Source: an uncultured bacterium
Lineage (GTDB): Bacteria > Eisenbacteria > RBG-16-71-46
DNA length: 64,000 nt
Reading direction: 5' to 3'
Assembly (NCBI GenBank): GCA_964589945.1
Contig: CAZPVG010000001.1
Coordinates: forward strand, 22,515-86,514
Shown: positions 40,667-61,613 of the stretch, piece after piece
Position numbering within the stretch: the first letter of the stretch is position 1
How the letters are laid out: each line of letters opens with the position of its first letter
The notes under the pieces: generated by a model
Databases searched by the model: none
What the model was told of the DNA's origin: nothing
Seen by the model: only the letters and a program-made list of their open reading frames with translations
Made by a program: the position numbers and the translations under genes

Positions 40667-41365
40667 TCAGCTGCGGCCGAACTCGTCCCCCGCCGGGGCT
40701 TCCTCGGCGTGATGCTTGATGACCCGCGCCTCGGCGATGAACACGACCTCCTCGGCGATGTTCGTCGCGAGGTCGCCGATCCGCTCGAGGTTGCGGCTCA
40801 CGAGCACGAGCGTCATGGCGGGCTCGATGTCGCCCGGGTTCGCGACCATGCGCGCGAGCAGCTCGCCGAACAGGCGGCGGTTGAGGTGGTCCACCTCGTC
40901 GTCGCGCCGGCACAGCCGGCGGGCCGAGTCGGCGTCGCGCCGCACGAACGCGTCGAGCGCGTCGCGCAGCATCCCGATCGCCCCCTCGGTCATCTGCCCG
41001 AGGTCCGGCAGCGGGCGGAGGGCCGGCCACCTCACGAGCTCCTGCGCGCAGCCCGCGATGTTGACCCCGTGATCACCGACGCGCTCGAGGTCATTCGAGA
41101 TCTTGATCGCCGACGTGATGAGCCGCAGGTCGCGCGCGAGCGGCTGCTGGAGCGCGAGCAGGCCGATGCAGCGCTCTTCGATCTCGATCTCGAGCCGGTC
41201 GATGGCCCGGTCGTCCGCGCGCACTTCGGCGGCCAGGGCGGCGTCGCGGCGCTGCAACGCCTCGACCGCCTTGCGCACGATGCGCTCGGAGAGGCCGCTC
41301 ATCTGGAGGAGCTGGGTCTTCAGCTCGTCGATCTGCTGCTCGAAGTGCCGTTCCATCGTCCCCAT
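40667..41365 (-). CDS. phoU: phosphate signalling complex protein PhoU
   Basis: Two PhoU repeats (ERIVRKAVEAL...DDRAIDRLEIEIEERCIGLLA... and ...DDEVDHLNRRLFGELLARM...RIGDLATNIAEEVVF). Immediately downstream of pstB. Start ATG at 41365 (alternative 41356). Confidence 0.85.
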   Translation of the reverse strand: MGTMERHFEQQIDELKTQLLQMSGLSERIVRKAVEALQRRDAALAAEVRADDRAIDRLEIEIEERCIGLLALQQPLARDLRLITSAIKISNDLERVGDHGVNIAGCAQELVRWPALRPLPDLGQMTEGAIGMLRDALDAFVRRDADSARRLCRRDDEVDHLNRRLFGELLARMVANPGDIEPAMTLVLVSRNLERIGDLATNIAEEVVFIAEARVIKHHAEEAPAGDEFGRS

Positions 41366-41415
41366 CGGACTCGAGGGTTCCGACGCCGCGCGCCGGCTGT
41401 CGTCGTGCCCGGAGA

Positions 41416-42294
41416 TCACCCGAACCGTCCCGTGATGTATTCCTCGGTGAGGTGCTCCCGGGGGTTCGTGAAGATCTGCCGCGTGTCGCCGGTTTCGACC
41501 AGGTGGCCCTGCATCAGGAACGCGGTGCGGTCCGAGACGCGCGCGGCCTGCTGCATGTTGTGGGTGACGATCACGATGGTATAGCGATCCTTGAGCCGGA
41601 GCACGAGTTCTTCGACGCGGGTGGTCGAGGCCGGGTCGAGCGCGGAGGCGGGCTCGTCCATGAGCAGGACCTCGGGCTCGACGGCGATGCAGCGCGCGAT
41701 GCAGAGCCTCTGCTGTTGCCCCCCCGACAGCCGGTGCGCGGGCAGGCCCAGCCGGTCGTGGACTTCGTCCCAGAGCGCCGCGTCGCGCAGGCTGGACTCG
41801 ACGCGCCGCTCGAGCTCGCCCCGGTTGCGAAGGCCGCCGAGGCGCAGTCCGTAGGCGACGTTGTCGAACACCGACATCGGGAAAGGATTCGGGCGCTGGA
41901 ACACCATTCCGACCCGGCGACGCAGGTCCACGACGTTCGTCGCGGGCGAGAGCAGGTCGAGCGGGCCGAGCCGGATCTCGCCGCTCGTGCGCACGCCCGG
42001 GATGAGGTCGTTCATCCGGTTGTACGAACGCAGCAGCGTGCTCTTGCCGCAGCCGGAGGGACCGATGATGGCGGTCACGCTGTGCTCGAGGATGTCGAGC
42101 GTGATGCCCTTGAGCACCTCGTGCACGCCGTAGCTCAGGCGGAAGTCGCGCGTGACGAGGTGCGGCGCCCGCGTCGCCGGGGCGGCATCGCCCTCCCGGG
42201 ACGCGGCCGCCACCGGCCGCGGCGGAAGCGCGGCCGGTCCGGGGGCCGGGGAAGCGGCCGGCCTGGTCGTCGGGGGGTTCTCGAGCATCGTCAT
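41416..42294 (-). CDS. pstB: phosphate ABC transporter ATP-binding protein
   Basis: [13 protein letters not shown] Walker [17 protein letters not shown] signature and [12 protein letters not shown] Walker B. ATG overlaps the pstA stop (ATGA). About 45-aa low-complexity N-terminal extension. Confidence 0.9.
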
Positions 42295-43151
42295 GGGTTC
42301 CGCCGGGCCACCACGCGCATCGCCGCCGACAGCGCGGCCACCACGAGGATGAGCGTCAGCGCGCCGGTCCAGGCCTGGGCGTTCCAGTCCGGGTACGGGG
42401 CGCGAGCATAGTCGAAGATCATCACCGGCAGCGAGGCGATCGGCTGGTCGAGCCTCGTGGACCAGAAGCGGTTGCCGAGCGCCGTGAAGAGCAGCGGCGC
42501 GGTCTCGCCCGCGGCCCGGGCGATCGCGAGCAGGCAGGCGGTCGTGATGCCGCCACGGGCCGCGGGAAGGACGATCTGGTGGATCACCTTCCAGCGCGGG
42601 GCCCCGAGCGCGAGCGCCGCGTGGCGGTACGACTGGGGCACCAGGCGGACGACCTCCTCGGTCGCGCGCACGATCGTCGGCAGCATCAGGATGCCCAGCG
42701 CGATGCCGCCGGCGATCGCGGAGAACCGTCCCATGGGCACGACCACGAGCCCGAACACCGCGACGCCCACGACGATGGACGGCACGCCGGCGAGGACGTC
42801 GTTCACGAGGCGCACGAGCGTGGCCATGCGGCCCCGGCCGATCTCGGCGAGGTAGAGCCCGGCGCCGATGCCGAGCGGAACGGCGAACGCGGCGCCGATC
42901 GCGACCAGGACGAGGGTGCCCACGACCGCATTTGCCATGCCGCCGCCGGGCTCGCCCACGGGCTTCGGCAGGTGGGTGAAGAACTCCGGTCGCAGCCCGG
43001 CGCCGCCCGCGCGCACGAGGTGCGCGAGGATGAGCAGGAGCGGCGCGACGACGACGAGCGCCGCGAGCAGGCAGAGCGCGGTCACGCCGTGGTCCGCGAG
43101 CTGGCGCAGGCGCGTCCGGCGCGCCACCGCGTCAGGCCGCGCCGGCGACAT
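42291..43151 (-). CDS. pstA: phosphate ABC transporter permease PstA
   Basis: 6 TM helices with the EAA-like loop ([17 protein letters not shown]). Sits between pstC and pstB. Confidence 0.9.
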
Positions 43152-44148
43152 CGCGCACCCCCTTCGTCATGCGGTGGAGCACGAGGCGCGCGATCCCGTT
43201 GAGCACGAACGTCACCACGAACAGCGCCAGGGCGATCTCGATGAGGGCCGCCGTGTGCAGCTTCTCGGTCGCCTCGGTGAACTCGTTGGCGATGACGCTC
43301 GCCATCGTCGCGCCGGGCGCGAGCAGCGAGGCCGTCAGGCGGTTCGAGTTCCCGATCACCATCGTGACGGCCATGGTCTCGCCGAGCGCGCGTCCCAGGC
43401 CGAGGACGATCGCCCCCATCAGGCCGGGACGGGCACCGGCGAGCACGACGCCGATCGCCTCGGCGCGGGTGGCCCCCAGCGCGAGCGCGGCCTCGCGGAA
43501 CGCCGGCGGCATCGCGCGCAGCACCTCGCGCGCGAGTGACACGATGGTCGGCAGGACCATGATCGCGAGCACGATTCCCGCGTTCAGCACGCCGAGTCCG
43601 AAGGGAAAACCCTGGAAGAGCGGCAGGAAGCCGAAGTGCGCGATCAGCCACGGCTCGACGAGGCCGCGCAGCACCGGCGCGAGCACGAAGATGCCCCAGA
43701 GCCCGTAGACGATGCTGGGGATCGAGGCGAGCAACTCGATGAGGTACGAGAGCACCGTGTCCACTCGGCGCGGCGCCATCTCGGTCAGGTAGACCGCGGC
43801 CCCGAGACTCGCCGGTACGGCGAGGATCATCGCGAGCGCCGACGTCGTCAGCGTTCCCACCAGGTACGGCAGCGCGCCGAAGCGGCCCGCGACCGGGTCC
43901 CACTCCGTGCCGATGAAGAACCGCAGCCCGAAGGCCTGCAGCGACGGCAGCGCGCCCCGCCAGGTCTCGTAGACGAGCAGCAGGACGACCGCGAAGACCG
44001 AGCCCGCCGCGGCGGCGAGGAGCGCGGCGTGCGCGCCGTCCGCGAGGGGCGCGCGACGGGCGGCGCGCGCGGCGGCCGCACGGAGCGGGCTTCCGCCCGC
44101 CCCGCCGGTCGCCGCGCGGTCCGCGATGCCGCCGGTCGTCACGCTCAC
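43132..44148 (-). CDS. pstC: phosphate ABC transporter permease PstC
   Basis: GTG at 44148 overlaps the pstS stop (GTGA). ...LPYLVGTLTTSALAMILAVPASLGAAVYLTEMAP...LLASIPSIVYGLWG...GLGRALGETMAVTMVIGNS aligns along the length with E. coli PstC. The upstream part of the track ORF is antisense artefact. Confidence 0.85.
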   Translation of the reverse strand: MSVTTGGIADRAATGGAGGSPLRAAAARAARRAPLADGAHAALLAAAAGSVFAVVLLLVYETWRGALPSLQAFGLRFFIGTEWDPVAGRFGALPYLVGTLTTSALAMILAVPASLGAAVYLTEMAPRRVDTVLSYLIELLASIPSIVYGLWGIFVLAPVLRGLVEPWLIAHFGFLPLFQGFPFGLGVLNAGIVLAIMVLPTIVSLAREVLRAMPPAFREAALALGATRAEAIGVVLAGARPGLMGAIVLGLGRALGETMAVTMVIGNSNRLTASLLAPGATMASVIANEFTEATEKLHTAALIEIALALFVVTFVLNGIARLVLHRMTKGVRDVAGAA

Positions 44149-45191
44149 TTGGCCCCGAGCGGTTTGCCGGCCGCGAGGAGGGTCTTCAGCGAGTGCTCGT
44201 TCACCGCGACGAGCGAGGCGGGCAGCGGCGCGTAGTCGAGGTCCGCCGCGTACGACTGCCCGTCGTGCATCGCCCAGTTGATGAAGTTGGTGAGCTGGCG
44301 GGCGCGCGCGGGATCCTTCATGTCCTGGTAGACGAGCAGGAAGGTCAGCCCGCAGATCGGGTAGGCGCCCGGGTCGCCCGAGTTCACGATCGGCGTCCGC
44401 ACGTCCTTCTGGAGCTCCTTCGACACGCCGTCCATCGCCGCCGTGACCGCGGCCATCGTCGGCTCGACGTACTTCCCGGCCTTGTTCTGCAGGCTCGCGT
44501 ACGGGAGCCTGTTCTGCTTCGCGTACGCGAGCTCCACGTAGCCGATGGCGCCGGGCGTCTGCCGCACGACCCCCGAGACGCCGTCGTTGCCCTTGCCGCC
44601 GACGCCGGCCGGCCAGCTCACCGCCGTGCCGGACCCGACGCTCGACTTCCACCGGGGGCTCACCGCCGACAGGTACATCGTGAAGATGTTCGTCGTCCCG
44701 CTGCCGTCGGCGCGGTGCACCACGAGGATCGGCCCTTTCGGCAACGCAACGCCGGGATTCGCGGCGACGATGCGCCGGTCGTTCCACGCCTGGATGCGGC
44801 CGAGGTAGATGTCCGCCAGCACGTCGGGCGTGAGCTTCAGGCGACCCCTCAGCGTGGGCAGGTTGTACGCGAGCACGATCGCGCCGCCCACGGTCGGGAA
44901 GTGCACGACCCGCCTCGGCATCGCCTCGAGCGCGGCGTCGGACAACGCGGCGTCGCTCGCACCGAAGTCCACGGTCCCCGACTTCAGCTGCTGGATGCCG
45001 GCCCCGCTTCCGATGGACTGGTAGTTGATCGCGACGCCCGTCTTCTGGTGGTAGACGTCGAACCACTTCGAGTAGAGCGGGTACGGAAAGGTGGCGCCGG
45101 CCCCCGTGAGCTGCTGGGCGGCTCCGGGGCCCGCCAGGGCCGCGCCAGCGAGGAGGGCGAGCGCGGCGGCGATGCGAACGGGTCGGGTCAT
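44145..45191 (-). CDS. pstS: phosphate-binding periplasmic protein PstS
   Basis: AGGAAAGGA Shine-Dalgarno before ATG at 45191. Signal peptide MTRPVRIAAALALLAGAALA. ...GAGATFPYPLYSKWF...GSGAGI...GASDA...ADGSGTT... are PstS phosphate-binding motifs. Confidence 0.85.
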   Translation of the reverse strand: MTRPVRIAAALALLAGAALAGPGAAQQLTGAGATFPYPLYSKWFDVYHQKTGVAINYQSIGSGAGIQQLKSGTVDFGASDAALSDAALEAMPRRVVHFPTVGGAIVLAYNLPTLRGRLKLTPDVLADIYLGRIQAWNDRRIVAANPGVALPKGPILVVHRADGSGTTNIFTMYLSAVSPRWKSSVGSGTAVSWPAGVGGKGNDGVSGVVRQTPGAIGYVELAYAKQNRLPYASLQNKAGKYVEPTMAAVTAAMDGVSKELQKDVRTPIVNSGDPGAYPICGLTFLLVYQDMKDPARARQLTNFINWAMHDGQSYAADLDYAPLPASLVAVNEHSLKTLLAAGKPLGAK

Positions 45192-45214
45192 GGTCTTCGT
45201 TCCTTTCCTGCGGC

Positions 45215-46333
45215 TCAGGATTGGGGCCTGCTGAACTTGTAGTAGAAGGTCAGGCGCGCCTGCAGGTCGTGGTGCGGCGGCACGACGCCGGCGCCGACGC
45301 GGCGGTACTGCATCGCCTCGACGTTCGGCATGACGTGGACGTTCTTCGTCGGCTGCCAGTCCACGCCCGCGATCCAGAGCTGCTGCCGGACGCGGTTCGG
45401 GGCGTTCCGGTCCGGGTCCCACAGGTCGACCCGGGCGAAGCCCGCGAGGTCGGGCCGGGGCGCGATGCGCGCGAAGATCGAGTGCCCGACCTGGTCCACG
45501 TACGGGCCCGTGGCGGTGTGCTGCACGTACTGGACGAACTCGTACCCGACCGCGCCGTGCCGGGGCAGGTCGTAGCCGGCGAACAGCTTCCACGTCGCCC
45601 GGTCGCGGTGGCCGTACACGTTCTCGTAGTCGGCGTAGGGCTCGACGCGCAGGGCCTTCCAGCGGAGCGGCAGCGCGAGGCCGACGCGCTTCTGGCGGTT
45701 CGTCTCGCTCCGGTTGCCCGTTCCGTTGGCGACCATCACCGCGTAGCCGGCGTGCCGCCCGGGATCCACCGCGCCCTTGAGCACGAAGCCCTGGTCCGCC
45801 GACGGCCCGACTCCGCGGAAGTCGGCGATCGTCTTCTCGATCGCGCGATGGCCCCAGTAGCCCTCGGAGTTCTCGAACATCGGCGTCGTCACGATGCCGA
45901 CGTAGAGGTCCGCGTGCGTGTAGAGGTTCTTCACGGCGAGGTAGGCGGCCTTCACGGCCACGCCGATCTTGCCGTCGGAGGTGAGCGACCTGCCGTCCGC
46001 CTCGAGGCGGAAGCGGGTCGCGTACTTCGCGCTGAGGTCGTTGTCGAGCTGGAAGTACGCCCGGCGCATCTGGAAGCCGTTCAGGTCGCGGGTGACGACC
46101 TTCTTGCCGTCGATGTTCGCCTGGCCGAGGTCGTTGCCGGCCGCGTCGTAGACGTGCGCGGGGTCTCCGGAAAGGTTGTCGTACCAGTCCCCGAAGATGT
46201 AGCCGCTGATCTTGCCGCGCGGGAAGTCCGATGGAGTCGGCGCCACGGCCGTGGGCGTGGCCGCCTGCTGGGCGTGCGCGAGCGTCGCAACCAGGAGGAG
46301 GCAGAGGGTCCAGCTGGCGACGGGTGCTCTCAT
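45215..46333 (-). CDS. phosphate-selective porin O/P family outer-membrane protein
   Basis: Signal peptide MRAPVASWTLCLLLVATLAHA. Beta-barrel pattern ending ...RLTFYYKF. Immediately upstream of pstSCAB-phoU on the same strand, like OprO/OprP in Pho regulons. Confidence 0.75.
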   Translation of the reverse strand: MRAPVASWTLCLLLVATLAHAQQAATPTAVAPTPSDFPRGKISGYIFGDWYDNLSGDPAHVYDAAGNDLGQANIDGKKVVTRDLNGFQMRRAYFQLDNDLSAKYATRFRLEADGRSLTSDGKIGVAVKAAYLAVKNLYTHADLYVGIVTTPMFENSEGYWGHRAIEKTIADFRGVGPSADQGFVLKGAVDPGRHAGYAVMVANGTGNRSETNRQKRVGLALPLRWKALRVEPYADYENVYGHRDRATWKLFAGYDLPRHGAVGYEFVQYVQHTATGPYVDQVGHSIFARIAPRPDLAGFARVDLWDPDRNAPNRVRQQLWIAGVDWQPTKNVHVMPNVEAMQYRRVGAGVVPPHHDLQARLTFYYKFSRPQS

Positions 46334-46490
46334 GTTCCGGTCGGGTCCTCTCGTGGGCCGGTCACCGCGCGTCACGGGTGGCGGCCTGTGTCCGGTCGTC
46401 GCTCGAGGGCCTGAGGGAGCGATGCGGGGATGGGGCCGGCGAACCGGCCGGGGGAAACCGTGCCCGGGACCCGTCGGGACGGGCCGCTGT

Positions 46491-46718
46491 TCATCGCGCG
46501 TCGTCGTTCCTCCGCGTGCGCCGCGTGTCGAGCGAGCGGCGGCGCGCCGACTGGACGACCCGCTCGTAGTCGATTCCCGCGGCGGCGAGCGCCGCGCTCC
46601 AGCTGCCCCACATGCGGCGGGCGCGTGCGTAGAGTGCGGGCTGCTCGAGGTGCACGCGGAACATCCGGCCGTCCCGCGCCGCCTCGCGGATCAGGTCGAG
46701 CGCCCGGGCGCGTTCCAT
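46491..46718 (-). CDS. small protein with homing-endonuclease-associated (HNH_repeat-like) motif
   Basis: MERARALDLIREAARDGRMFRVHLEQPALYARARRMWGSWSAALAAAGIDYERV: the ...Y.rarr.WGSWs.Al.aAGi core resembles the FGSW..Al.aAG motif of HNH_repeat/HEARO-type ORFs. The start is uncertain: an in-frame GTG at 46796 would add 26 aa. Confidence 0.45.
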   Translation of the reverse strand: MERARALDLIREAARDGRMFRVHLEQPALYARARRMWGSWSAALAAAGIDYERVVQSARRRSLDTRRTRRNDDAR

Positions 46719-46970
46719 GAGCGGGGGTCGGCCGCGCCGGCGCCGGGCCGACGGCCGCAGTTCTTCCTCGTCGGCTTCCGAATGGGAGAGAGTCACGTGG
46801 CCTCACGACGGGTTGGGGCTCGCCCCGGGCGAAGAGCCCCGGGACCGGGCGGACGCCGGGCGGAGGTCGCCCGTGCGGGTTCGGCGGGGAATGTCCCCCA
46901 CCCCCTGTTACCGCCCGATGAACACCGCATTACTTTTGCGGCAACCGTCGAAGAGCCGCCGAACCGGGGC

Positions 46971-48731
46971 CTAACGCGGGGCGGTCGCCGCGGCGGGGAG
47001 CTCGAAACGGAAGGCGCTTCCCCGTCCGGGGGCGCTCTCGACCGAGACGCTCCCTCCGTGGAGGCCGACGATGTGCTTCACGATCGACAGCCCCAGCCCG
47101 GTCCCCCCCTGCTCCCGTGAGCGCGCCTTGTCCAGGCGATAGAAGCGCTCGAAGACGCGCGCCTGGTCCTCGGCCGGGATGCCGGGCCCGGTGTCGCGCA
47201 CCTCACACCAGGCGTGCCCCGCGTCGGCCCCGGCGGAGACGGTGACCCCGCCGCGCTCGGTGTACTTGACCGCGTTGTCCACGAGGTTCGCCACGACCTG
47301 CGCGAGCCGCGCGCGATCGGCCTCCACGTCGACCGGCGGCCCGGGCAGCAGCTCCAGCGCCAGCCCGGCGCGGTGCGCGGCCTCGCGGAAGCTCGCGACG
47401 TGCTCCGCGAGCAGCTCGCGGAGGTCGAAGCGCGTGCGCCGGAGCGGCGCGCCCTCGCGCTCGAGCTCGGCGAGCGACAGCAGGTCGTCCACGAGCGCCT
47501 GCAGCCGCACGGCCTGGTCGCGGATCACGCGCACGAAGTGCTCGCGGTGCTCGGCGTCCTCGAGCCCGCCGTCGAGCAGCGTCTCGGCGTAGCCGCGCAG
47601 CGAGGTGAGCGGCGTGCGCAGCTCGTGCGAGACGTTGGCCACGAAATCCTGGCGCATGCGCGTCACGCGCTCGGCCTCGGTGAGGTCGTGCAGCACCAGC
47701 AGGACCGCGCCGCCGCCGGCCTCGCCGAGCGGCGTCGCGCCCGCGCGCAGGACGCGCGACTCGGGCGACCAGATGCGCAGGTCCTCGACGAGGCCGCTGC
47801 CCCGCGCGCGGGCGCGGGCGACGAGGTCGCCGATCTCGGGCACGCGCGCGAACTCGAGCAGCGGCGTCCCGGAGGCGGCGGGCCGGGGTGCGCCGAGCAG
47901 CACCGCGAGGCTGTGGTTGCAGTGGAGCAGCCGCCCCTCGGAATCCACGAGCGCGACGCCGTCGGACATGTGCGCGAGCACGTACTCGCGCTCGTCGCGT
48001 TCGCGGCGCAGCGCGTCGAGCCGTTCCCGCAGCTCGCGCGCCATCACGTTGAGCGCCGTGCCGAGCCGCCCCAGCTCGTCCTCGGGCCGCTCGAGGGCGC
48101 GGGCGCCCGAGTCTCCCGACCCGATGCGCCGGGCGACGGCCTCGAGCTCGATGACGCGGCCGACCTGCCGCCGCGAGAGCGTGAACGCGACGAGGAGCGA
48201 GGCCGCGATCGCGAACAGGGCGGCGAACAGGAGCCCGCGCCACTGCAGCCGGCCGAGGTCGCGCAGGAAGCCCAGCGATTCGGCGACGCGCACGACCGCG
48301 AACGGCGCGCCGGGCCACGCCGGGACCGCGACGTACTGCAGATCGATCCCCAGCGACACGCTCCTGCGCACCGCGCTCTTCGCGTGGCCCGCGAGGGCGC
48401 CCCTCACCTCGGGCCGGTTCGCGTGGTTCTCGAGGTAGGCCGTGTCGGCCCGCGAGTCGGCGAACACGCGCCCGTCGGCACGGATCAGCGTCACGCGCAG
48501 GCCGGTCCGCCGGTCCACGTCCTGCACCGCCGCCAGCCAGCCCGCGCGGTGCAGCGCCGGCGCGTCCCGGAGGCGTCGCGCGACCAGCGGGGCCTCGCGC
48601 TCGAGCACGCGGGCATTGCGGGAGAGCAGGTCGCGGCGCTCGATCTGCAGCTCGATCGCGACCAGCGTGGCGAGCGCGGCGACGACGGAGAGCGCGAGCG
48701 CGAGGAAGAGGCGCAGCCGGATCGAGCGCAC
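46971..48731 (-). CDS. phoR: PhoR-like sensor histidine kinase
   Basis: Two N-terminal TM helices, a PAS-like region, HisKA (VANVSHELRTPLTSLRGYAETL) and HATPase_c (GGTGLGLSIVKHIVGLHGGSVSVESAPGRGSAFRFEL). 11 nt downstream of phoB. Confidence 0.85.
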   Translation of the reverse strand: MRSIRLRLFLALALSVVAALATLVAIELQIERRDLLSRNARVLEREAPLVARRLRDAPALHRAGWLAAVQDVDRRTGLRVTLIRADGRVFADSRADTAYLENHANRPEVRGALAGHAKSAVRRSVSLGIDLQYVAVPAWPGAPFAVVRVAESLGFLRDLGRLQWRGLLFAALFAIAASLLVAFTLSRRQVGRVIELEAVARRIGSGDSGARALERPEDELGRLGTALNVMARELRERLDALRRERDEREYVLAHMSDGVALVDSEGRLLHCNHSLAVLLGAPRPAASGTPLLEFARVPEIGDLVARARARGSGLVEDLRIWSPESRVLRAGATPLGEAGGGAVLLVLHDLTEAERVTRMRQDFVANVSHELRTPLTSLRGYAETLLDGGLEDAEHREHFVRVIRDQAVRLQALVDDLLSLAELEREGAPLRRTRFDLRELLAEHVASFREAAHRAGLALELLPGPPVDVEADRARLAQVVANLVDNAVKYTERGGVTVSAGADAGHAWCEVRDTGPGIPAEDQARVFERFYRLDKARSREQGGTGLGLSIVKHIVGLHGGSVSVESAPGRGSAFRFELPAAATAPR

Positions 48732-48742
48732 GCGCGCTCCGG

Positions 48743-49441
48743 TCAGGCGCCCACCGCCCCCGCGGGAGCGACGAACTTGTACCCCGCGCCGGTCACGGTC
48801 TCGATGAAGGCGTGGTCCGCCCCGAGCTTCTGGCGCAGGCGGCGAACGTGCACGTCCACGGTGCGCGTCTCGCCGAGGTAGTCGTAGCCCCAGACCTTGC
48901 GCAGCAGCTCCTCGCGCGAGACGACCCGTCCGGGGTGGCGCATCAGGAACGCGAGCAGCTCGAACTCCCGCGGCGTGAGGGCGAGCCGCCGCCCCGCGAC
49001 CGAGGCCTCGCGGGCCGCCGGGTCCACGCGCAGCGCGCCCTGCTCGAGCGCGTGCCCCGCCTGCGAGGGCTTCGCCCGCCGCAGCAGCGCGCGCAGCCGC
49101 GCGATCAGCTCGCGCGGGCTGAAGGGCTTGGTGAGGTAGTCGTCCGCGCCGTGCTCGAAGCCGAGCAGTTTGTCCATCTCGGCGCCACGCGCCGTCAGCA
49201 CGATCACCGGGACGTCCGCGGTCGCGGGCTCGCCGCGCACCTCGCGGAGGATCTCGAGGCCGTTCAGGCCCGGCAGCATCAGGTCGAGGACGACGGCGTC
49301 CGGGCGCGAGGCGAACAGCTGCTCGAGCCCCTCTTCGCCGTCCGCGAACGCCGCGACGCGGAAGCCGGACCGCTCGAGGTTGTAGCGCAGGAGATCGCGG
49401 ATCTCCTTCTCGTCCTCGATCACCATCACGAGCTCGCTCAT
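48743..49441 (-). CDS. phoB: PhoB-like OmpR-family response regulator
   Basis: GGAGG 4-5 nt before ATG at 49441. MSELVMVIEDEKEIRDLL...VLDLMLPGLNG...DDYLTKPFSPRELIARL receiver domain plus winged helix (REELLRKVWGYDYLGETRTVDVHVRRLRQKLG...AGYKF). Only the C-terminal 232 aa of the 654-aa track ORF are real. Confidence 0.9.
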   Translation of the reverse strand: MSELVMVIEDEKEIRDLLRYNLERSGFRVAAFADGEEGLEQLFASRPDAVVLDLMLPGLNGLEILREVRGEPATADVPVIVLTARGAEMDKLLGFEHGADDYLTKPFSPRELIARLRALLRRAKPSQAGHALEQGALRVDPAAREASVAGRRLALTPREFELLAFLMRHPGRVVSREELLRKVWGYDYLGETRTVDVHVRRLRQKLGADHAFIETVTGAGYKFVAPAGAVGA

Positions 49442-50600: not shown

Positions 50601-51239
50601 ATGAAGCGTCTTCTGGTCCTCGCCGCCCTCCTCGCAGGGACGCTGGCGGCGAACGCGGCTTGCGCGCAGGTGTTCGGACAGTTCACGGGCGCCGAGCCGC
50701 TCAACATGAACGCCCGGCTCTTCGGCGCCTACGCCGGCTTCTCGAAGAGCGAATCCGAGCTGCTCGCCCAGCTCCGCCTGAGCTTCTACCCCGGCGTGGA
50801 CTTCGGCTTCCAGGGCGGCCTCTCGCGCGTGAGCATCGGCGACAACAACCGCACCACGGTCAAGCTCGGGGGCGACTTCAAGGCGATCGCCGCGAGGCGG
50901 TCCGAAACGATGCCGTTCGACCTGTCGCTCGGCGCGGCGATCGGCGTGAGCTCGGCCGACAACTTCAACCTGCTCAGCGTCGGGCCCGAGATCGTCGGCA
51001 GCCGCCGGTTCGCGACCGGCTCGGGCTCGGACCTGACGACGTACGCGGGCCTGCTCGTGCTCTTCACGCGCAGCGACCTCGGCAGCACGAACACCACCGA
51101 CGTCTCCGTCCCTCTGCGCTTCGGCCTCTCGTTCGCGCCGAACGCCGACCTCAGCCTGCTGGCCGAGCTCCAGGTGGCGCTCAGCGACCAGATCAACGAC
51201 GACCTCAAGCTGACGGTGGGGGCCAACTTCCCGTTCTGA
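50601..51239 (+). CDS. outer-membrane beta-barrel protein (OmpW/porin-like small barrel)
   Basis: Signal peptide MKRLLVLAALLAGTLAANAACA. Alternating hydrophobic beta-strands. C-terminal ...LKLTVGANFPF ends in Phe. Confidence 0.6.
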   Translation: MKRLLVLAALLAGTLAANAACAQVFGQFTGAEPLNMNARLFGAYAGFSKSESELLAQLRLSFYPGVDFGFQGGLSRVSIGDNNRTTVKLGGDFKAIAARRSETMPFDLSLGAAIGVSSADNFNLLSVGPEIVGSRRFATGSGSDLTTYAGLLVLFTRSDLGSTNTTDVSVPLRFGLSFAPNADLSLLAELQVALSDQINDDLKLTVGANFPF

Positions 51240-51724
51240 GCCGGCCGGCCCTCCCGGGACCGCTCCGCGACGGCCTCCGGCTGTCACCACAACCGCCGGG
51301 ACGGCAACGCGATACGACGGTGCCTTTCGGGGCTTGTGGCCCCATGGGGCGGATGCTAGCCTCTCGCCCCTCGCAGACGAAGCCCTCCAGGGCCGACGCG
51401 CGAGACTCTCTGGCAAAGACCACAAGATATTCGTAGCAAACGCCTTAGGTGCGCTATGCGCGGCGGTCGCCCGTGGCCGCTTCCGCCCGTGCATCGCCGC
51501 CCCACCCCCGCTGTGGACAACCTGTGGAGGAAGTGCTTCGAGCCACCAGTTACCGCATTGTTTGGCTTGGCTTTCCAGCGTTTCACCTAATTGTGGATAT
51601 TCACGGCTTCACATTTCCACAAACTGCCCCCACCGCCGGGCCCGGGGCCGCGATTGAGCACTGTTCTCGCCGCCCCGAACCCTGTGGACAAAGCTCGAAA
51701 CCATCACCTGCAAGGATCGTGGAC
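51240..51724. other. oriC part 1: DnaA-box cluster upstream of dnaA
   Basis: Reduced-GC noncoding stretch. DnaA-box-like 9-mers TGTGGACAA (51512-51520), TGTGGAGGA (51523-51531), TGTGGATAT (51592-51600), TTTGTGGAA on the minus strand (51615-51623) and TGTGGACAA (51683-51691). Confidence 0.6.
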
Positions 51725-53125
51725 ATGGCCGTCCAACCCGTTCAGCCGGAGGACCAATCGCGCCTCTGGGAGCAGGTCCTGCTGTCCGTCATGGGCCGCC
51801 TCGGCAGCCGTCAGGCCTACGACACCTGGTTCAAGCCGATCGTGCCCCGCGAGCTGAGTTCGCGGCTCGTCGACCTCGAAGTCCCCAACGCCTTCTTCGT
51901 GGACTGGATCCACGAGCACCACCTCTCGACCCTGCGGCTGGCCCTGCACGACGTCATGGGCGTGACGCCCGAGGTGCGGTTCACGCCGCGCGAGCCCGCC
52001 GCAGCGCCGCCGCTGCGGGCCGCCGGCCTGAACGCCGCGCCCCGGGGCGGGCCCGCCCCGCCGCCGTCCGTGACGCGCGCGAACCGGCTGTGGCTGGAGA
52101 CGCCGCTCAACCCGCGGCACACGTTCGAGACCTTCGTCGTCGGCCCCAGCAACCGCTTCACGCACGCCGCCAGCCGGGGCGTCGCCGAGCGTCCGGGCGC
52201 CCTGTACAACCCGCTCTTCATCCACGGCGGCTCGGGTCTGGGCAAGACGCACCTGCTCCACGCGATCGGGCACGAGGTCAAGCGCGTGCGCCCGGAGGCG
52301 CGGGTCCAATACGTGCCGGCCGAGCGATTCACGAACGAGCTGATCTACGCGATCCAGCACGGGGAGACGCTCCCGTTCCGGAACCGCTACCGCGGCGTGG
52401 ACGTGCTGCTGATCGACGACGTGCAGTTCCTGGCCGGCAAGGAGAGCACGCAGGAGGAGTTCTTCTACACGTTCAACGCCCTCCGCGACGTGCACAAGCA
52501 GGTCGTCGTGACCGCCGACGAGCCCCCGAAGGACATCGAGGGGCTCGAGGATCGCCTGATTTCGCGTTTCAACCAGGGGCTCGTGGCCGACCTCAAGCAG
52601 CCCGACCTGGAGACGCGCATCGCGATCCTGCGCAACCGGTGCGAGCAGGAGGGCGCGGGCCTCATGCTGCAGGACGACGTCCTGCTGCTGCTGGCCGACC
52701 GCATCCGGGGCAACGTCCGCGACCTCGAGGGATGCCTCGTGCGGCTCCTCGCGTGGGCGTCGCTGGCCCAGCGCGAGATCACGCTCGAGCTCGCCGAGGA
52801 GGTCCTGGGCCAGTACGTCGGCGTGGAGCCGGACCAGCTCACGCCGGAGCGCATCCTCGCGGCCGTCGGGGAGCGTTTCGGCGTGAAGGGCGAGGCTCTC
52901 GTGGGCAAGCGGCGGACGCAGGTCATCGCGCTGCCCCGCCAGGTGGCGATGTACCTCCTGCGCCAGCTCACGGACCTCTCGCTCGCCGAGATCGGCCGCA
53001 TCTTCGGCGGCCGGGATCACACGACGGTGCTCTATGCGTGCGAGAAGATCGCGCGCCTGGTCAACACCGAGGACGCGCTGCGGGAGAAGATCAACGGGCT
53101 CATTTCCACGCTCGCCTCTGGATGA
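51725..53125 (+). CDS. dnaA: chromosomal replication initiator protein DnaA
   Basis: AAGGA before ATG. ...NPLFIHGGSGLGKTHLLHAIG (Walker A), VLLIDDVQFL (Walker B), a sensor/arginine region and the C-terminal DNA-binding domain ...IALPRQVAMYLLRQLTDLSLAEIGRIFGGRDHTTVLYA. Confidence 0.95.
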   Translation: MAVQPVQPEDQSRLWEQVLLSVMGRLGSRQAYDTWFKPIVPRELSSRLVDLEVPNAFFVDWIHEHHLSTLRLALHDVMGVTPEVRFTPREPAAAPPLRAAGLNAAPRGGPAPPPSVTRANRLWLETPLNPRHTFETFVVGPSNRFTHAASRGVAERPGALYNPLFIHGGSGLGKTHLLHAIGHEVKRVRPEARVQYVPAERFTNELIYAIQHGETLPFRNRYRGVDVLLIDDVQFLAGKESTQEEFFYTFNALRDVHKQVVVTADEPPKDIEGLEDRLISRFNQGLVADLKQPDLETRIAILRNRCEQEGAGLMLQDDVLLLLADRIRGNVRDLEGCLVRLLAWASLAQREITLELAEEVLGQYVGVEPDQLTPERILAAVGERFGVKGEALVGKRRTQVIALPRQVAMYLLRQLTDLSLAEIGRIFGGRDHTTVLYACEKIARLVNTEDALREKINGLISTLASG

Positions 53126-53488
53126 GGTGTGAATAACCTGTGGATGGGTGGGGAGATCGCCCCCTCGAACGTCACGGTGTCGAAATGCCGTGGACAAGCG
53201 GGCGGTACTCCCCAGCCACCGCGGCGCGTCCAAACCCTTGCGCCGAACCTGTTTGAAGCCCAGTTCGTGACGTTTCGCACACCTTCCACAGCCCCTACTA
53301 CGACTGTCTTCTTTACTTATTGAAAGACAATAAGTTAGAAGGCCTTAAAGGGGTGCGAAATCGCTTGCAGCCCGCAGGGGGGCTGCCTATGATGCTGCCG
53401 CCTTCCCCCACCCCCCCAGCGCGGCCCGACTCGCGACGGCGGAAGCTGCAGAAAGACATGAAGTTCCCAATCGTCAGGGAGTGACCGT
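53126..53488. other. oriC part 2: DnaA boxes plus AT-rich DNA-unwinding element between dnaA and dnaN
   Basis: TGTGGATGG (53139-53147), CGTGGACAA (53189-53197), CTGTGGAA on the minus strand (about 53284-53291). Then the only clearly AT-rich stretch in the window, CTGTCTTCTTTACTTATTGAAAGACAATAAGTTAGAAGGCCTTAAAG (about 53304-53350), containing a 7-bp inverted repeat ACTTATT/AATAAGT. Confidence 0.65.
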
Positions 53489-56884
<3,396 letters not shown>

Positions 56885-56885
<1 letters not shown>

Positions 56886-57496
56886 TGCGACGCTTCCCGA
56901 CGCTGTTCACCGCGCTGGCCCTCGCGGCCTGCGCCGGCGCGGCCCACGCGGGCCCCGCCATCCCGCCCCCCGACATCACCCTCTCGGCCGGCGCCACGTT
57001 CGGCGCCGACTCGAGCCCCTCGGGCGGCGGCGCCTCGGCCTCGCTCTCGGCTCTGTGGCCACTCGACGATCGCTGGCGCTTCGGCGTCGTGGGCTACGTG
57101 GACGACATCGGGACCTCCTACATCGAGCTCAGGGATCCCAACGACGGCACGCCGCTGGGGCCGGCCGCGAGCCTGCACCGCTGGACCTGGGGTGCCGCGT
57201 GGCGCGTCGAGGGCGACGCCTGGCAGCGCGGCCGCTGGACCGCGGGCGGGGCCGGCGCGCTGGGCTGGTGGCGCGTCGAGGACGACCGCCGCGGCCAGGT
57301 CCTCGCCGCCGCGAGCGCCGTGGGCTTCCGGCTGGGCGCGCAGGTGCGGCACGCGTTCGACCGCGGCCGCTCGCTGGGCCTCGAGATCGGCTATCACCAG
57401 CTGGCGAAGGACAAGCACACGAGTTGGGACCGCGTGACGCGCTACGCCACCGCCGCGCTCCAGTACCGGTGGGCGAGGCGCGACCTCCAGGATTGA
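56885..57496 (+). CDS. small exported Trp/Gly-rich protein (hypothetical) inserted between gyrB and gyrA
   Basis: ATG overlaps the gyrB stop (TGATG). Signal peptide MRRFPTLFTALALAACAGAAHA. Beta-rich (WRFGVVGYVDDIG...WTWGAAWRVEGDAW...GWWRVEDD). No recognisable domain. Confidence 0.5.
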
Positions 57497-57572
57497 CGAT
57501 CGCCCGCCGGCCCGGGCGCACAGGAGGTGCGCCGGGACACCGGGCCGTGGGAACCAGGAAAAGGAACGGGAC

Positions 57573-60089
57573 ATGGCGCTGAACGATCGGTCGAAAATCG
57601 TCGACATGAACATCGAAGACGAGATGAAGACCAGCTACATCAACTACTCGATGTCGGTCATCGTCTCGCGCGCGCTGCCGGACGTCCGCGACGGCCTGAA
57701 GCCCTCGCAGCGGCGCATCCTGGTCGCGATGAACGACCTCAACCTCTCGCCCGGCCGCGGCTACCGCAAATGCGCGAAGATCGCCGGCGACACGTCGGGC
57801 AACTACCACCCGCACGGCGAGGGGGTCGTCTACCCGACCCTCGTGCGCCTCGCGCAGGACTGGGTCATGCGCTACCCGCTGGTGGACGGGCAGGGTAACT
57901 TCGGCTCGATCGACGGCGACGCGCCGGCGGCCATGCGATACACCGAGGCGCGCCTGACGGCCCTGGCGATGGAGATGCTCGCCGACCTCGAGAAGAACAC
58001 CGTCGATTTCCGGCCGAACTACGACGAGACGCGCGAGGAGCCGTCCGTCCTGCCGTCGGTCGTCCCGAACCTGATCGTGAACGGGTGCTCCGGCATCGCC
58101 GTCGGCATGGCGACCGAGGTCCCGCCGCACAACCTCCGCGAGATCTGCGACGCGATCGTCGCGGTCATCGACCGGCCCGACCTGCCGGAAGCCGAGTTGC
58201 TGCGCATCGTGAGCGGCCCTGACTTTCCCACGGGCGGCATCATCTACGGCACCCAGGGCATCCGCGACTGCTACCGCACCGGCCGCGGCATCATGAAGGT
58301 CCGCGCCAAGGTGCAGGTCGAGGAGGGCAAGGGCGGCCGCATGAGCCTGGTGGCCACCGAGATCCCATTCCAGGTGAACAAGGGCGGGCTGCTCGAGAAG
58401 ATCGCCGACATGGTGCGGAGCGGCCGGGTCGCCGGCATCAGCGACCTGCGCGACGAGTCCGACCGCGACGGCATGCGGATCGTGATCGAGCTGAAGAAGG
58501 ACGCGAACCCGAAGGTCGTGCTGAACAACCTCTTCGTGCACACGCCGCTGCAGACCTCGATCGGCGCGATCATGCTCGCGCTCGTGGACAACCGCCCCCA
58601 GGTGCTGACGCTGCGCGGCGTCCTCGACGAGTACGTGCGGCACCGCCGCGAGGTCGTGCGCCGGCGCACGGAGTTCGACCTCGCCGAGGCCGAGCGCCGC
58701 GCCCACATCCTCGAGGGGCTCAAGATCGCGCTCGACAACCTCGACGCGGTCATCGCGCTCATCCGCGGGTCCAAGGACATCGAGACAGCGCGCCAGGGCC
58801 TCATGAGCCGCTTCAAGCTCACGGAGATCCAGGCGAACGCGATCCTCGAGATGCGCCTGCAGCGCCTGACCGGCCTCGAGCGCGAGAAGATCGAGAAGGA
58901 GTACCTCGAGGTCATCCAGCTCATCGAGAAGCTGCGCTCCGTCCTGGCCAGCGAGAAGAAGATGCTGGGCATCATCCAGGACGAGGTCCGCCGGATCCGC
59001 GACCGGTTCGGCGACGAGCGGCGCACGCAGATCGTGGCCGAGGACGGCGAGATCAACTACGAGGACACCATCGAGCAGAAGGACATGGTGATCACGATCT
59101 CGCACGCCGGCTACATCAAGCGCCAGGAGGTCTCGGCCTACCGCGCCCAGCGGCGGGGCGGCAAGGGCGTGATCGGCGCGCGCACGAAGGACGACGACTA
59201 CATCGAGCACCTGTTCATCGCGAACACGCACGCCTACCTGCTGTTCCTGACCGACAAGGGGCGCTGCTACTGGCTCAAGGTGCACGAGATCGAGCAGGCC
59301 GGCCGCATGGCGAAGGGCCGCCCGCTCGTGAACCACCTCGAGGGCCTCGGGCGCAACGAGAACGTGCAGGCGGTCGTCGCGGTGAAGACCTTCGACGACC
59401 AGCACTACCTGGTCTGCGCGACGCGCAAGGGCCTCATCAAGAAGACGGTGCTCTCGGCTTACGGCAACGTGCGCAAGACCGGCATCAACGCCGTCCTGCT
59501 CGAGGAGGGCGACGCCCTGTTCGAGGCGATGATCACGGACGGGACCCAGGACGTGATCCTCGCGAAGAAGAAGGGGCTCGCGGTCCGTTTCCACGAGAAG
59601 GAAGTGCGCGCGATGGGCCGCACCGCCCGCGGCGTGAAGGCGGTGACGCTCGACGACGCCTCCGACGAGGTCGTGAGCATGGTCGGCGTGAAGCGCCAGG
59701 CCACGCTCCTTGCCGTGACGGAGAACGGCTACGGCAAGCGCAGCGAGCTCTCCGAGTACCGTGTCTCCCACCGCGGCGGCAAGGGCATCATCACGATCAA
59801 GACGACGGAGCGGAACGGCAACGTCGTCGCGGTGAAGGAGGTCGTGGACGGCGACGAGCTCATGATCATCACGCGCCAGGGCCAGATGATCCGCATGCCG
59901 GTGAAGGGCATCTCGGTCCTCGGCCGCAACACGCAGGGCGTACGCCTGGTGAACCTGTCGGAGCCGTCCGAGGGCGAGCTGCTTCCCGACGTGGTCTCCG
60001 GCGTCACGCGGGTCGTCTCGGAGGACGAGGTGGCCGACGCCGGCGCGACCGACGCCGATGCGAACGGGGTCGGACCCGGCGAGGCCTGA
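57573..60089 (+). CDS. gyrA: DNA gyrase subunit A
   Basis: AGGAAAAGGA Shine-Dalgarno. ...[37 protein letters not shown]...[30 protein letters not shown] includes the active-site Tyr region and QRDR. C-terminal beta-pinwheel repeats. Confidence 0.95.
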
Positions 60090-60099
60090 TCGTAACGAC

Positions 60100-60741
60100 A
60101 TGGCGAAGATCTCGGAGTCCACCGTCAGTCGCCTCTCGCACTACTACCGGGTGCTCGAGGAGGTGGCCGCCGAGGGCGGCAAGGTGATCTCGTCGCAGCT
60201 GCTGGCCGAGCGGGAGGGCATCACCTCGGCGCAGGTGCGCAAGGACCTGTCGTACTTCGGGTCCTTCGGCCGCCGCGGGCTCGGCTACAGCGTGGAGCAC
60301 CTGCGCGCGCAGATCCGCGCGATCCTCGGCCTCGACCGGCGCTGGCGCGTCGCGGTGATCGGGGCGGGCCACATCGGCTCCGCGCTGCTCGCGTACCGCG
60401 GCTTCGCCTCGCAGGGGTTCGACATCGTGGCCGTCTTCGACGTGGATCCGGCCCGCGTGGGGCACCCTGACGGCGCGCTGAGCGTGCGCCACGTGTCGCA
60501 GCTCTCGGCGGAGGACGCCATCGACATCGGCGTCATCGCGACGCCCGTCCGGGCGGCCCAGGAGGTCGCGGACGCCCTCGTGGCCGCGGGCGTCCGCGGC
60601 CTCCTCAACTTCGCGCCCCGCAAGCTGCGCGTGCCCGACGACGTGTGGGTGCGCACGGTGGACATGACGACCGAGTTCGAGAGCCTGTCGTTCGCGCTCT
60701 CGCAGCCGCACGGGCCGCGCCGGAGGCGCCCGGCCGGGTGA
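60100..60741 (+). CDS. rex: redox-sensing transcriptional repressor Rex
   Basis: MAKISESTVSRLSHYYRVL...GKVISSQLLAEREGITSAQVRKDLSYFGSFGRRGLGYSVEHL winged-helix plus Rossmann VAVIGAGHIGSALL... Confidence 0.85.
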   Translation: MAKISESTVSRLSHYYRVLEEVAAEGGKVISSQLLAEREGITSAQVRKDLSYFGSFGRRGLGYSVEHLRAQIRAILGLDRRWRVAVIGAGHIGSALLAYRGFASQGFDIVAVFDVDPARVGHPDGALSVRHVSQLSAEDAIDIGVIATPVRAAQEVADALVAAGVRGLLNFAPRKLRVPDDVWVRTVDMTTEFESLSFALSQPHGPRRRRPAG

Positions 60742-61613
60742 GCGACCGCCGCGGCGAGCCCGCGGCCGTCGCGGCGATGGTGGTCGCGACGCTCCTGTGG
60801 GGCGGGACCTTCGTCGCGATCCGGGACACCGTGGAGGCGATCCCGCCCGCGACGCTCGTGTGCGGCCGCTTCGCGGTGGGGGCTGCCGTCTTCGCCGCGC
60901 TGCTCGCGCTGCGGGGCCGCCCGCCCGCGGCGCGCGACGTGTGGGCCGGCGTCGGCAGCGGCGCGCTGATGGTCGGCGGCTATTTCTTCCAGGCCGAGGG
61001 CCTGCTCTCGACGAGCGCGGGCAGCTCGGCGTTCCTGACCTGCGCCGGCACGCTGCTCGCGGCATTCTTCGCCTGGCCGATGCTCGGCCAGCGCCCGGGG
61101 CGGCTGCTCGTCGCCGGGATCGCGATCGCCATGGCCGGGTCGGCGCTGCTCTCGCTGCGCTCGGGCTTCCAGCTGGGCCGCGGCGAGCTGCTGACGCTGC
61201 TCGGGGCGGCGCTGTACGCGCTGCAGGTCGTCGCGCTCGGGCGCTGGGCGCCGGGCGCGGACCCGATCGTGCTCACCGGCGCGCAGGCGGCGACCGTCGC
61301 CCTGGTGCTCGCGCCGTTCACGGGCGACGCCGTGCGCACGTTCGAGGCGCTCGACGGCGCGGGATGGGCGCGATTCGCCTACCTCGCCGTGGCCGGCAGC
61401 ACGATCGCGCCGCTCCTGCAGGTGCTCGCGCAGCGGCGCCTGCCGCCCGGCCGCGTCGGGCTGCTGTTCGCGCTCGAGCCGGTCTTCGCCCTGCTCTTCG
61501 CGCTGACGATCGGCGCCGAGCGTTTCGAGGCCAGGTGGTGGACCGGCGCGGGCCTCATTCTCCTCGCGGTCGTGACGGTGGAGTGGCGCGCGGCCGCTTC
61601 AGCTCGTCGCTGA
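60738..61613 (+). CDS. EamA-family (DMT superfamily) transporter
   Basis: GTG at 60738 overlaps the rex stop (GTGA); ATG at 60777 is an alternative. Ten TM helices in two EamA repeats (...LLWGGTFVAIR... / ...LEPVFALLFALTIGAERF...). Confidence 0.75.
   Translation: MSDRRGEPAAVAAMVVATLLWGGTFVAIRDTVEAIPPATLVCGRFAVGAAVFAALLALRGRPPAARDVWAGVGSGALMVGGYFFQAEGLLSTSAGSSAFLTCAGTLLAAFFAWPMLGQRPGRLLVAGIAIAMAGSALLSLRSGFQLGRGELLTLLGAALYALQVVALGRWAPGADPIVLTGAQAATVALVLAPFTGDAVRTFEALDGAGWARFAYLAVAGSTIAPLLQVLAQRRLPPGRVGLLFALEPVFALLFALTIGAERFEARWWTGAGLILLAVVTVEWRAAASARR

Follow-up and report, generated by a model that had tools for sequence, protein, structure and literature searches.

DnaA-box clusters flanking dnaA at a very probable chromosomal replication origin of an uncultured Eisenbacteria-like bacterium

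Genes and DnaA boxes around dnaA

The window, the 64-kb stretch of DNA that was analysed, contains dnaA, which encodes 466 amino acids (TIGR00362, E = 9e-150), and dnaN for the beta sliding clamp (53489-54640, plus strand; TIGR00663, E = 6e-75), both identified by an NCBIfam equivalog search. The genes gyrB and gyrA were likewise identified as NCBIfam equivalogs. An outer-membrane-type gene is found immediately upstream of dnaA, dciA lies directly after dnaN, and the two genes singled out in the next sentence are dnaA and dnaN. An independent Logan contig gives identical calls for these two genes. Twenty-five related Candidatus Eisenbacteria genomes share the order omp, dnaA, dnaN, dciA, gyrB. 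Rfam and tRNA scans of the 64-kb window returned zero matches. The two spacers that border dnaA have the sizes given in a preliminary description of this DNA, as their coordinates bear out (Table 1).

Table 1. Features of the dnaA region, in window coordinates
Feature	Coordinates	Strand	Details
Upstream spacer (before dnaA)	51240-51724		485 bp
Promoter-like site upstream of dnaA	51334-51362	+	TTGTGG (51334-51339), 17-nt spacer ending TGC, TAGCCT (51357-51362)
Tandem boxes U1 and U2	51512-51531	-	U1 TGTGGACAA (51512-51520), U2 TGTGGAGGA (51523-51531); 11 bp start to start
Inverted box pair U3 and U4	51592-51621		U3 TGTGGATAT (51592-51600), U4 ATTTCCACA (51613-51621); both conserved in the relatives' alignment
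Box U5	51683-51691	-	TGTGGACAA; 34 nt before the dnaA start codon
dnaA	51725-53125	+	Gene dividing the two DnaA-box clusters
dnaA-dnaN spacer	53126-53488		363 bp
Head-to-tail array D1, D2, D2b	53128-53157	-	D1 TGTGAATAA (53128), D2 TGTGGATGG (53139), degenerate D2b TGGGGAGAT (53149); 11 and 10 bp spacing
Box D3	53189-53197	-	CGTGGACAA; core with at most 1 mismatch in 18/25 relatives
Degenerate box D4	53206-53214	+	TACTCCCCA in the window; relatives' consensus TtcTCCACA
Abutting boxes D5 and D6	53273-53290	+	D5 TTTCGCACA (53273-53281), D6 CCTTCCACA (53282-53290); face the candidate unwinding site
GC-rich spacer and DnaA-trio-like trinucleotides	53291-53306	+	GCCC (53291-53294), then CTA CTA CGA CTG; complementary strand 3'-GAT GAT GCT GAC-5'
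AT-rich element, candidate DUE	53307-53342		T-rich top strand (TCTTCTTTACTTATTGA)
Promoter-like site for dnaN	53365-53393	+	TTGCAG (53365-53370), 17-nt spacer, TATGAT (53388-53393)

Both spacers carry DnaA boxes, five within 51512-51691 and about seven within 53128-53290. The 9-mers of the preliminary description are all present at the positions it gave: U1, U3, U5 and the TTCCACA-type U4 upstream of dnaA, and D2, D3 and the TTCCACA-type D6 in the dnaA-dnaN spacer. To these we add U2 and D1, together with the degenerate boxes D2b, D4 and D5.

No other element of the region is as well conserved as the upstream boxes, and for U1, U2 and U5 the core is exact in 20-23 of 25 relatives. In the alignment, the TCCACA core is exact at U1 in 23 of 25 relatives and at U2 in 22 of 25. 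The core of U5, a box that closely precedes the ribosome-binding site GCAAGGA (51710-51716), is exact in 20 of the 22 relatives that align there. The U3/U4 inverted pair is the second-lowest-GC spot of the window, and all five upstream boxes sit downstream of the conserved promoter-like site, within the ~360-nt dnaA leader. On the other side of dnaA, the relatives' consensus for the D1-D2b array is gcTGTGGAtAACCtGTGGAgGg.tGgGGAga, and the D4 core has at most one mismatch in 24/25 relatives.

The clustering of boxes around dnaA, which had been noted before, is not a matter of chance: 7 of the 17 TGTGGA/TCCACA cores in the 64 kb fall within the 848 bp of both spacers (binomial P = 1.2e-9). Non-coding occurrences of this core in the window number 7, all inside the two spacers. 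An unbiased k-mer search of the spacers of 26 genomes ranked TCCACA/TGTGGA at the top, with 177 observed versus 5 expected, and a box weight matrix trained on the relatives only (consensus TTATCCACA) places the two 500-bp regions of highest box density in the window at these spacers. Spacer lengths and box positions are kept in the 25 relatives, even though DnaA identity is only 64-75%. Further copies of CGTGGACAA lie outside the spacers (8047, 8731, 47275, 55106, 56096 and 58583); all are on the coding strand of their genes, and they are probably codon-driven rather than DnaA sites.

Trinucleotides, AT-rich element and promoter-like sites

In the dnaA-dnaN spacer, a box pair is followed by a 4-nt GC spacer, CTA-type trinucleotides and AT-rich DNA, an order that at the level of sequence matches the published unwinding module (PMC8287927; PMC6669920). 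The dnaN promoter-like site comes next. The 4-nt GC-rich gap between the box and the first trio is also present in the relatives. In the basal unwinding system (BUS), a box with at most 2 mismatches lies within 0-16 bp of the trios, and an optional second box may have up to 4 mismatches (PMC8287927). Several relatives follow this box rule, for example with TTGTCCACA and then directly CCGTCCACA at D5/D6; in the window, D5 and D6 have 3 mismatches each against TTATCCACA, with the TCCACA core of D6 intact. In functional terms, the BUS is defined by DnaA-dependent strand separation that needs both boxes and trios.

The trinucleotide array of the window is degenerate. We looked for the runs of at least three consecutive trios that the BUS calls for, defined loosely as 3'-NAN-5' or strictly as 3'-[G/A]A[T/A]-5'. 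No such run is present in the window, where the run is two (CTA CTA), and among the relatives 2/25 have one by the strict definition and 6/25 by the loose one. The register of the array is itself kept: trio 1 is CTA in 24/25 relatives and trio 4 is CT[A/G] in 22/25, with trios 2 and 3 variable.

The AT-rich element occupies the same position in 25/25 relatives. The preliminary description had singled it out as the only such element in the 64 kb, and it is indeed the window's lowest-GC stretch of 30-100 bp, with a GC content of 0.23 over 53311-53340 compared to 0.37 for the next lowest. No duplex in the 64 kb is less stable (nearest-neighbour dG -32.9; mean -51.0, sd 3.4). Conservation within the element goes beyond composition alone and extends to sequence, in the motifs TTcTTAyTTATTGA and ACTTAGAAG, and the T-rich stretch is followed by gAcTTAGAag in the relatives and by AAGTTAGAAGG in the window. 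An inverted repeat had also been reported here; it is present as a perfect 8-bp repeat (53315-53322 / 53328-53335, 5 nt between), but is absent in most relatives. For this reason we rejected a hairpin as a conserved feature of the element (z = -3.9 in the window, but a mean z of 0.1 in the relatives). IHF-like matches take the form CAA-N4-TTA at the same position in 14/26 genomes and the full consensus WATCAANNNNTTR in 4/26, and to place an IHF-like site in the element is speculation.

Upstream of dnaA, CTTGTc-N17-TGCTAGCcT is kept in the 25 relatives despite variable spacer sequence, as is CTTGC-N17/18-CCTAt.ATGC before dnaN. A strict scan of 51100-53600 for consensus promoters and terminators called nothing, so it is from conservation alone that both promoters are proposed. 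A hairpin in the dnaA leader has modest support from single-sequence folds; for the dnaN leader, RNAalifold gives 5 invariant pairs with essentially no covariation and one double change.

Strand asymmetry and known origins

A chromosomal origin is marked by a switch of strand compositional asymmetry or by a copy-number peak. The switch in gene orientation proposed for this locus holds, but only locally. The pst/pho block (40667-49441) is on the minus strand and dnaA through eamA (51725-61613) is on the plus strand, but dnaA is immediately preceded on its left by two plus-strand genes, and genes from 61555 onward are on the minus strand again. The left 51 kb is mixed, with ~25.8 kb on the plus and ~20.2 kb on the minus strand, these tallies being approximate, from a codon-usage gene model checked against Pfam. 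GC skew within the window is flat (-0.0002 left, +0.012 right), and the cumulative curve passes through the locus without a turning point. Taken overall and at third codon positions by gene strand, the skew is likewise flat and dominated by transcription strand. The divergent forks put forward in the preliminary description are therefore neither supported nor refuted. A search of the 64-kb window for parS, allowing up to 3 mismatches, found no site.

As in Bacillus subtilis, with incAB upstream of dnaA and incC in the dnaA-dnaN spacer, box clusters lie on both sides of the gene and the putative unwinding site is in the spacer; incC likewise combines a tandem box pair, a short GC spacer, CTA-type trinucleotides and AT-rich DNA (PMC6669920; PMC8287927). 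More distant boxes further upstream in the spacer are another likeness. The genome here, unlike that of B. subtilis, is 73% GC, which accounts for the shortness of the AT-rich element (~35 nt), and the trio array is degenerate. There is also no rpmH/rnpA upstream and no recF downstream, but an outer-membrane-type gene and dciA instead, and the helicase loader is of the DciA type, whereas helicase loading in B. subtilis uses DnaD/DnaB/DnaI.

Helicobacter pylori differs from the bacterium studied here in its AT-rich genome and in having a gene other than dnaN downstream of oriC2. Its oriC1-dnaA-oriC2 region resembles the present locus in belonging to a Gram-negative bacterium, in having two clusters split by dnaA, and in the downstream position of the DUE (PMC4285127; PMC13643167). 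The oriC1/oriC2 of Clostridioides difficile was predicted and partly tested as bipartite, with DnaA-dependent melting in the dnaA-dnaN spacer; there too a trio array follows the boxes and precedes the DUE, and the window's trinucleotides resemble its trio sequence, 5'-CACCTACTACTATTACTACTATGA-3' (PMC7561715). However, C. difficile has a long canonical run (CTA CTA CTA TTA CTA CTA) and many more upstream boxes, compared to two consecutive canonical trios here. Mycobacterium and Streptomyces share high GC and an origin between dnaA and dnaN (PMC4285127), but theirs is described as a single intergenic module, whereas the present locus has a further, better-conserved cluster upstream of dnaA.

Proposed mechanism and alternatives

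We conclude that this locus is very probably the chromosomal replication origin of an uncultured Eisenbacteria-like bacterium, built as in B. subtilis. An oriC with box clusters on both sides of dnaA and an unwinding element in the dnaA-dnaN spacer had been proposed from this one sequence, and the 25 related genomes support and strengthen that proposal. From the anatomy and its conservation across the lineage, we infer DnaA binding, the melting site, the promoters and any need for the upstream cluster. The binding sites of DnaA would be the phased boxes (53128-53214) and the abutting pair (53273-53290). Starting from these, an ATP-DnaA oligomer would grow across the GCCC spacer and CTA CTA, on the complementary strand, and open the AT-rich element next to them. 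The opened element would be where DnaB is then loaded, presumably with DciA, whose gene follows dnaN directly. For the five upstream boxes, which are stronger and lie inside the dnaA leader, autoregulation of dnaA is the most likely role, and they may also form a second half of the origin that contacts the downstream complex by looping, in the manner of B. subtilis and H. pylori. This explanation as a whole, with an origin region whose unwinding module lies in the dnaA-dnaN spacer and whose upstream boxes most likely autoregulate dnaA, seems to us likely to be right.

A bipartite oriC has two DnaA-box clusters split by a spacer gene, usually dnaA, and one cluster carries the DUE (PMC4285127; PMC13643167). 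Judged as an arrangement, the locus fits this description, as had been suggested: two clusters flank dnaA, and the least stable, lowest-GC duplex lies in the downstream one. The term further implies that both subregions are needed in vivo and that DnaA bridges them by looping. The origin could instead be continuous and confined to the dnaA-dnaN spacer, the arrangement of Mycobacterium and Streptomyces, with the upstream boxes only repressing dnaA transcription, a possibility to which we give somewhat less than an even chance. That spacer alone has about seven boxes plus the candidate unwinding module, and beside none of the boxes in the upstream spacer is there a GC spacer, a trio or an AT-rich stretch. 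Moreover, the upstream boxes are all within the leader, and U5 is at a good position for a roadblock. Yet a purely repressive role sits uneasily with the conservation of the upstream boxes, the strongest in the region, with their tandem, 11-bp phasing in the manner of origin arrays, and with the similarly placed clusters of B. subtilis and H. pylori, which are essential in vivo and dispensable for in vitro unwinding (PMC6669920).

It is very unlikely that the two clusters do no more than control the transcription of dnaA and dnaN, with the true origin elsewhere as in E. coli. Each cluster is accompanied by a conserved promoter-like site, and the window lacks a skew signal and parS, all of which would suit such control sites, but the succession of box pair, GC spacer, CTA trinucleotides and least stable duplex is typical of an unwinding module rather than of an operator, and is kept in 25 genomes. 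Twelve boxes also exceed the usual need of autoregulation. We consider it unlikely, too, that the AT-rich element is mainly a protein-binding site, either for a bending protein or for a regulator of the dnaN promoter 25-50 bp downstream. The conserved motifs and the IHF-like matches speak for such a site; against it, few genomes have the strict IHF-like match, the relatives do not keep the palindrome, and the element lies ~58-93 nt upstream of the inferred transcription start, past the usual UP-element position. Protein binding at the element is also compatible with a role as DUE.

One joint reading, which we regard as improbable, is that origin opening in Eisenbacteria uses a deviant array for single-strand recognition, in which positions 1 and 4 are always canonical CTA trios and the units between are non-canonical, CGG or TGA. 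The two conserved motifs of the AT-rich element would in addition be a site for a lineage-specific origin factor or for DciA/DnaB loading, and the dnaN promoter would help melting by transcribing away.

In a full-text literature search, no paper turned up in which Eisenbacteria appear alongside oriC, dnaA or a replication origin. The architecture described here is that of an ordinary origin and leaves the current understanding of replication start unchanged. What it provides is a concrete, comparatively supported origin map in a candidate phylum without a cultured member. Such a map may serve to anchor or rotate genome assemblies, to estimate growth rates from metagenomic coverage (peak-to-trough ratio), and to test the generality of the box-trio-AT-rich unwinding module in high-GC, Gram-negative DciA lineages.

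Architecture of the dnaA locus

We consider it likely that the locus centred on dnaA serves as the origin region and that its duplex opens in the dnaA-dnaN spacer. An identical DnaA is present on an independent Logan contig, where the gene calls agree with those in the window (73% GC). The best matches to this DnaA (64-75% identity) come from metagenome-assembled genomes, most labelled Candidatus Eisenbacteria. Among the top 25 loci, the order small outer-membrane-type gene, dnaA, dnaN, gyrB is kept in most; one of them, L012, starts too near dnaA for the upstream gene to be visible. Most spacers of these relatives fall in the ranges of about 455-530 and 343-375 bp; a few outliers reach up to 650 bp. 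The upstream gene, whose label comes from its sequence alone, gave no match in Pfam and NCBIfam searches. Because dciA, which overlaps the dnaN stop codon, occupies the interval between dnaN and gyrB, gyrB probably starts near 54966 rather than at the long-ORF start at 54729.

Features of the dnaA locus, in window coordinates
Feature	Position	Strand	Remarks
Small gene, ~200 aa	50601-51239	+	Upstream of dnaA; syntenic in most relatives
Upstream spacer	51240-51724		485 bp, 5' of dnaA
GCAA-N4-6-TTGC-like palindrome	51303-51318		GGCAACGCGATACGAC; semi-conserved
Promoter-like site	51334-51362		TTGTGG, 17-nt spacer ending TGC, TAGCCT; conserved
Stem-loop	51363-51410		Variable sequence
Boxes U1, U2	51512, 51523		Tandem pair, 11 bp apart
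Boxes U3, U4	51592, 51613		Inverted pair
Box U5	51683		Single; 34 nt before dnaA start codon
dnaA	51725-53125	+	NCBIfam equivalog, above cut-off
dnaA-dnaN spacer	53126-53488		363 bp
Boxes D1, D2, D2b	53128, 53139, 53149		Head-to-tail; spacing 11 and 10 bp
Box D3	53189		Single
Box D4	53206		Degenerate; opposite to preceding boxes
Boxes D5, D6	53273-53281, 53282-53290		Abutting; oriented as D4
GCCC spacer, then CTA CTA CGA CTG			Between D5/D6 and AT-rich element
AT-rich element	53307-53342		Candidate unwinding element
Promoter-like site for dnaN	53365-53393		TTGCAG, 17 nt, TATGAT; conserved
dnaN leader	53443-53488		Nearly invariant in 25 genomes
dnaN	53489-54640	+	NCBIfam equivalog, above cut-off
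dciA (DUF721), 101 aa	54637-54942	+	Pfam DciA E = 1e-22
gyrB		+	NCBIfam equivalog, above cut-off
Small gene, ~200 aa	56885-57496	+	Between gyrB and gyrA; weak OMP_b-brl match
gyrA		+	NCBIfam equivalog, above cut-off

Clustering of DnaA boxes and the AT-rich element

The DnaA-box 9-mers listed in the preliminary description were all found where it placed them. Overlooked there were TGTGGAGGA at 51523, TGTGAATAA at 53128, and three degenerate boxes that become visible only by comparison with relatives. Of the 17 copies of the core hexamer TGTGGA/TCCACA in the 64 kb, seven fall within the two spacers, which together span 848 bp (binomial P = 1.2e-9), and none falls in the remainder of the window's ~5.9 kb of non-coding DNA. 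In an unbiased word count over 52 spacers, with their coding flanks as background, the same hexamer was the top word (177 observed versus 5 expected). A weight matrix built from the relatives only has the consensus TTATCCACA, the canonical DnaA box; a scan of the window with this matrix places the two densest 500-bp regions in the two spacers, which hold 9 of the 23 matches of at least 11 bits. Six extra copies of CGTGGACAA (8047, 8731, 47275, 55106, 56096 and 58583), all on the coding strand of genes (histidine kinase, phoR-like, gyrB, gyrA), look codon-driven rather than like DnaA sites, a warning for counting boxes with one mismatch allowed where the genome is GC-rich.

The AT-rich stretch was correctly singled out: whichever segment length between 30 and 100 bp is taken, no other part of the window has so low a GC content (0.23 over 53311-53340, followed by 0.37 in the upstream spacer). 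Nearest-neighbour energies likewise make it the least stable duplex (-32.9 kcal/mol versus a mean of -51.0, sd 3.4). The inverted repeat reported within it is a perfect one of 8 bp (53315-53322 and 53328-53335), which forms a strong hairpin in the window (z = -3.9). We rejected this hairpin as a conserved feature, since the majority of relatives lack it (mean z = 0.1). A motif at 53333-53342, on the downstream edge of the element, is conserved in sequence across the lineage as gAcTTAGAag; the window has AAGTTAGAAGG here, and the 8-mers ACTTAGAA and CTTAGAAG of the consensus have no copy anywhere in the 64 kb.

In the dnaA-dnaN spacer, boxes are followed by GCCC, triplets, the AT-rich element, a promoter-like site and the leader. 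Its boxes are less well kept than those upstream of dnaA and thus weaker: the core is exact in only 5-11 of 25 relatives, although it mostly differs by no more than one mismatch. In this genome D2b and D4 share one variant core, TGGGGA/TCCCCA, in opposite orientations, and their regions (53145-53155 and 53208-53218) make up an inverted repeat with arms of 11 nt separated by 52 nt. The dnaN leader reads CGGAAc...GGCCGGACaTgaagTTCC...GTCAGGGAGTGACC; its CCGGAC is a potential pairing partner of GTCAGG, a stretch overlapping the ribosome-binding site, and this pairing has essentially no covariation across the nearly invariant alignment.

Bipartite or continuous origin

The published structural description of a bipartite origin is two box clusters separated by dnaA, one with an unwinding element (PMC4285127, PMC13643167), and the bipartite arrangement proposed for this locus fits it. 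In function, such an origin is further defined by a need for both halves in vivo (PMC6669920). Nothing else at the locus is conserved as well as the upstream boxes (U1, U2 and U5 have an exact core in 20-23 of 25 relatives), and none of them is followed by AT-rich DNA, trinucleotide repeats or a GC spacer. All five follow the conserved promoter-like site and a stem-loop, and sit in the putative transcribed dnaA leader, a position that suits autoregulation at least as well as an origin role. We rate a purely continuous origin, with the upstream cluster autoregulatory, as somewhat less likely than not. The stem-loop directly follows the promoter-like site in most relatives and may be a 5' structure on a long dnaA leader; its mean folding z is -1.37, with 13 of 26 genomes below -1.5, and no consensus structure emerged from RNAalifold, for which the alignment was poor. 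The palindrome, found in many relatives ~20-30 nt upstream of the promoter-like -35, could be a regulator site.

At the dnaA loci compared from Elusimicrobia, Nitrospinota, Clostridia, cyanobacteria and Betaproteobacteria, boxes lie on both sides of the gene in some and only downstream in many; boxes on both sides are therefore a known, non-universal arrangement. A full-text literature search found no paper pairing Eisenbacteria with oriC, dnaA or replication origin. The switch in gene orientation described at the locus holds in part: the pst/pho block (40667-49441) is on the minus strand and dnaA through eamA (51725-61613) on the plus strand, but the two genes immediately left of dnaA are on the plus strand and the left 51 kb carries genes in both orientations, the Pfam-confirmed plus-strand ones including metG, tatD and ksgA. 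Beyond 61555 genes revert to the minus strand. GC skew is flat within the window (-0.0002 left and +0.012 right of the locus), third-position skew tracks the transcription strand only, and the 64 kb contain no parS site.

A possible route to unwinding

In the basal unwinding system (BUS), a pair of boxes is followed by a GC gap of 4 nt, by CTA-type triplets and then by AT-rich DNA, which is the layout seen here. The system's definition comes from B. subtilis, and it is predicted for 85% of 2070 origins (PMC8287927, PMC6669920). The trio region of C. difficile, 5'-CACCTACTACTATTACTACTATGA-3', closely resembles the sequence at this site (PMC7561715). Strict membership is not established, because the two trio-proximal boxes have three mismatches each to TTATCCACA, the window has no more than two canonical trios in a row, and runs of at least three are seen in 2 of 25 relatives under the strict motif or 6 of 25 under the loose NAN rule. 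BUS-like operation is plausible, since the trio register is conserved (24 of 25 relatives have CTA as trio 1, and 22 of 25 have a middle T in trio 4). From this anatomy we infer that DnaA bound at 53273-53290 would extend onto the complementary strand, 3'-GAT GAT...-5', and would open 53307-53342, where the helicase would then be loaded; the dciA gene after dnaN suggests a loader of the DciA type.
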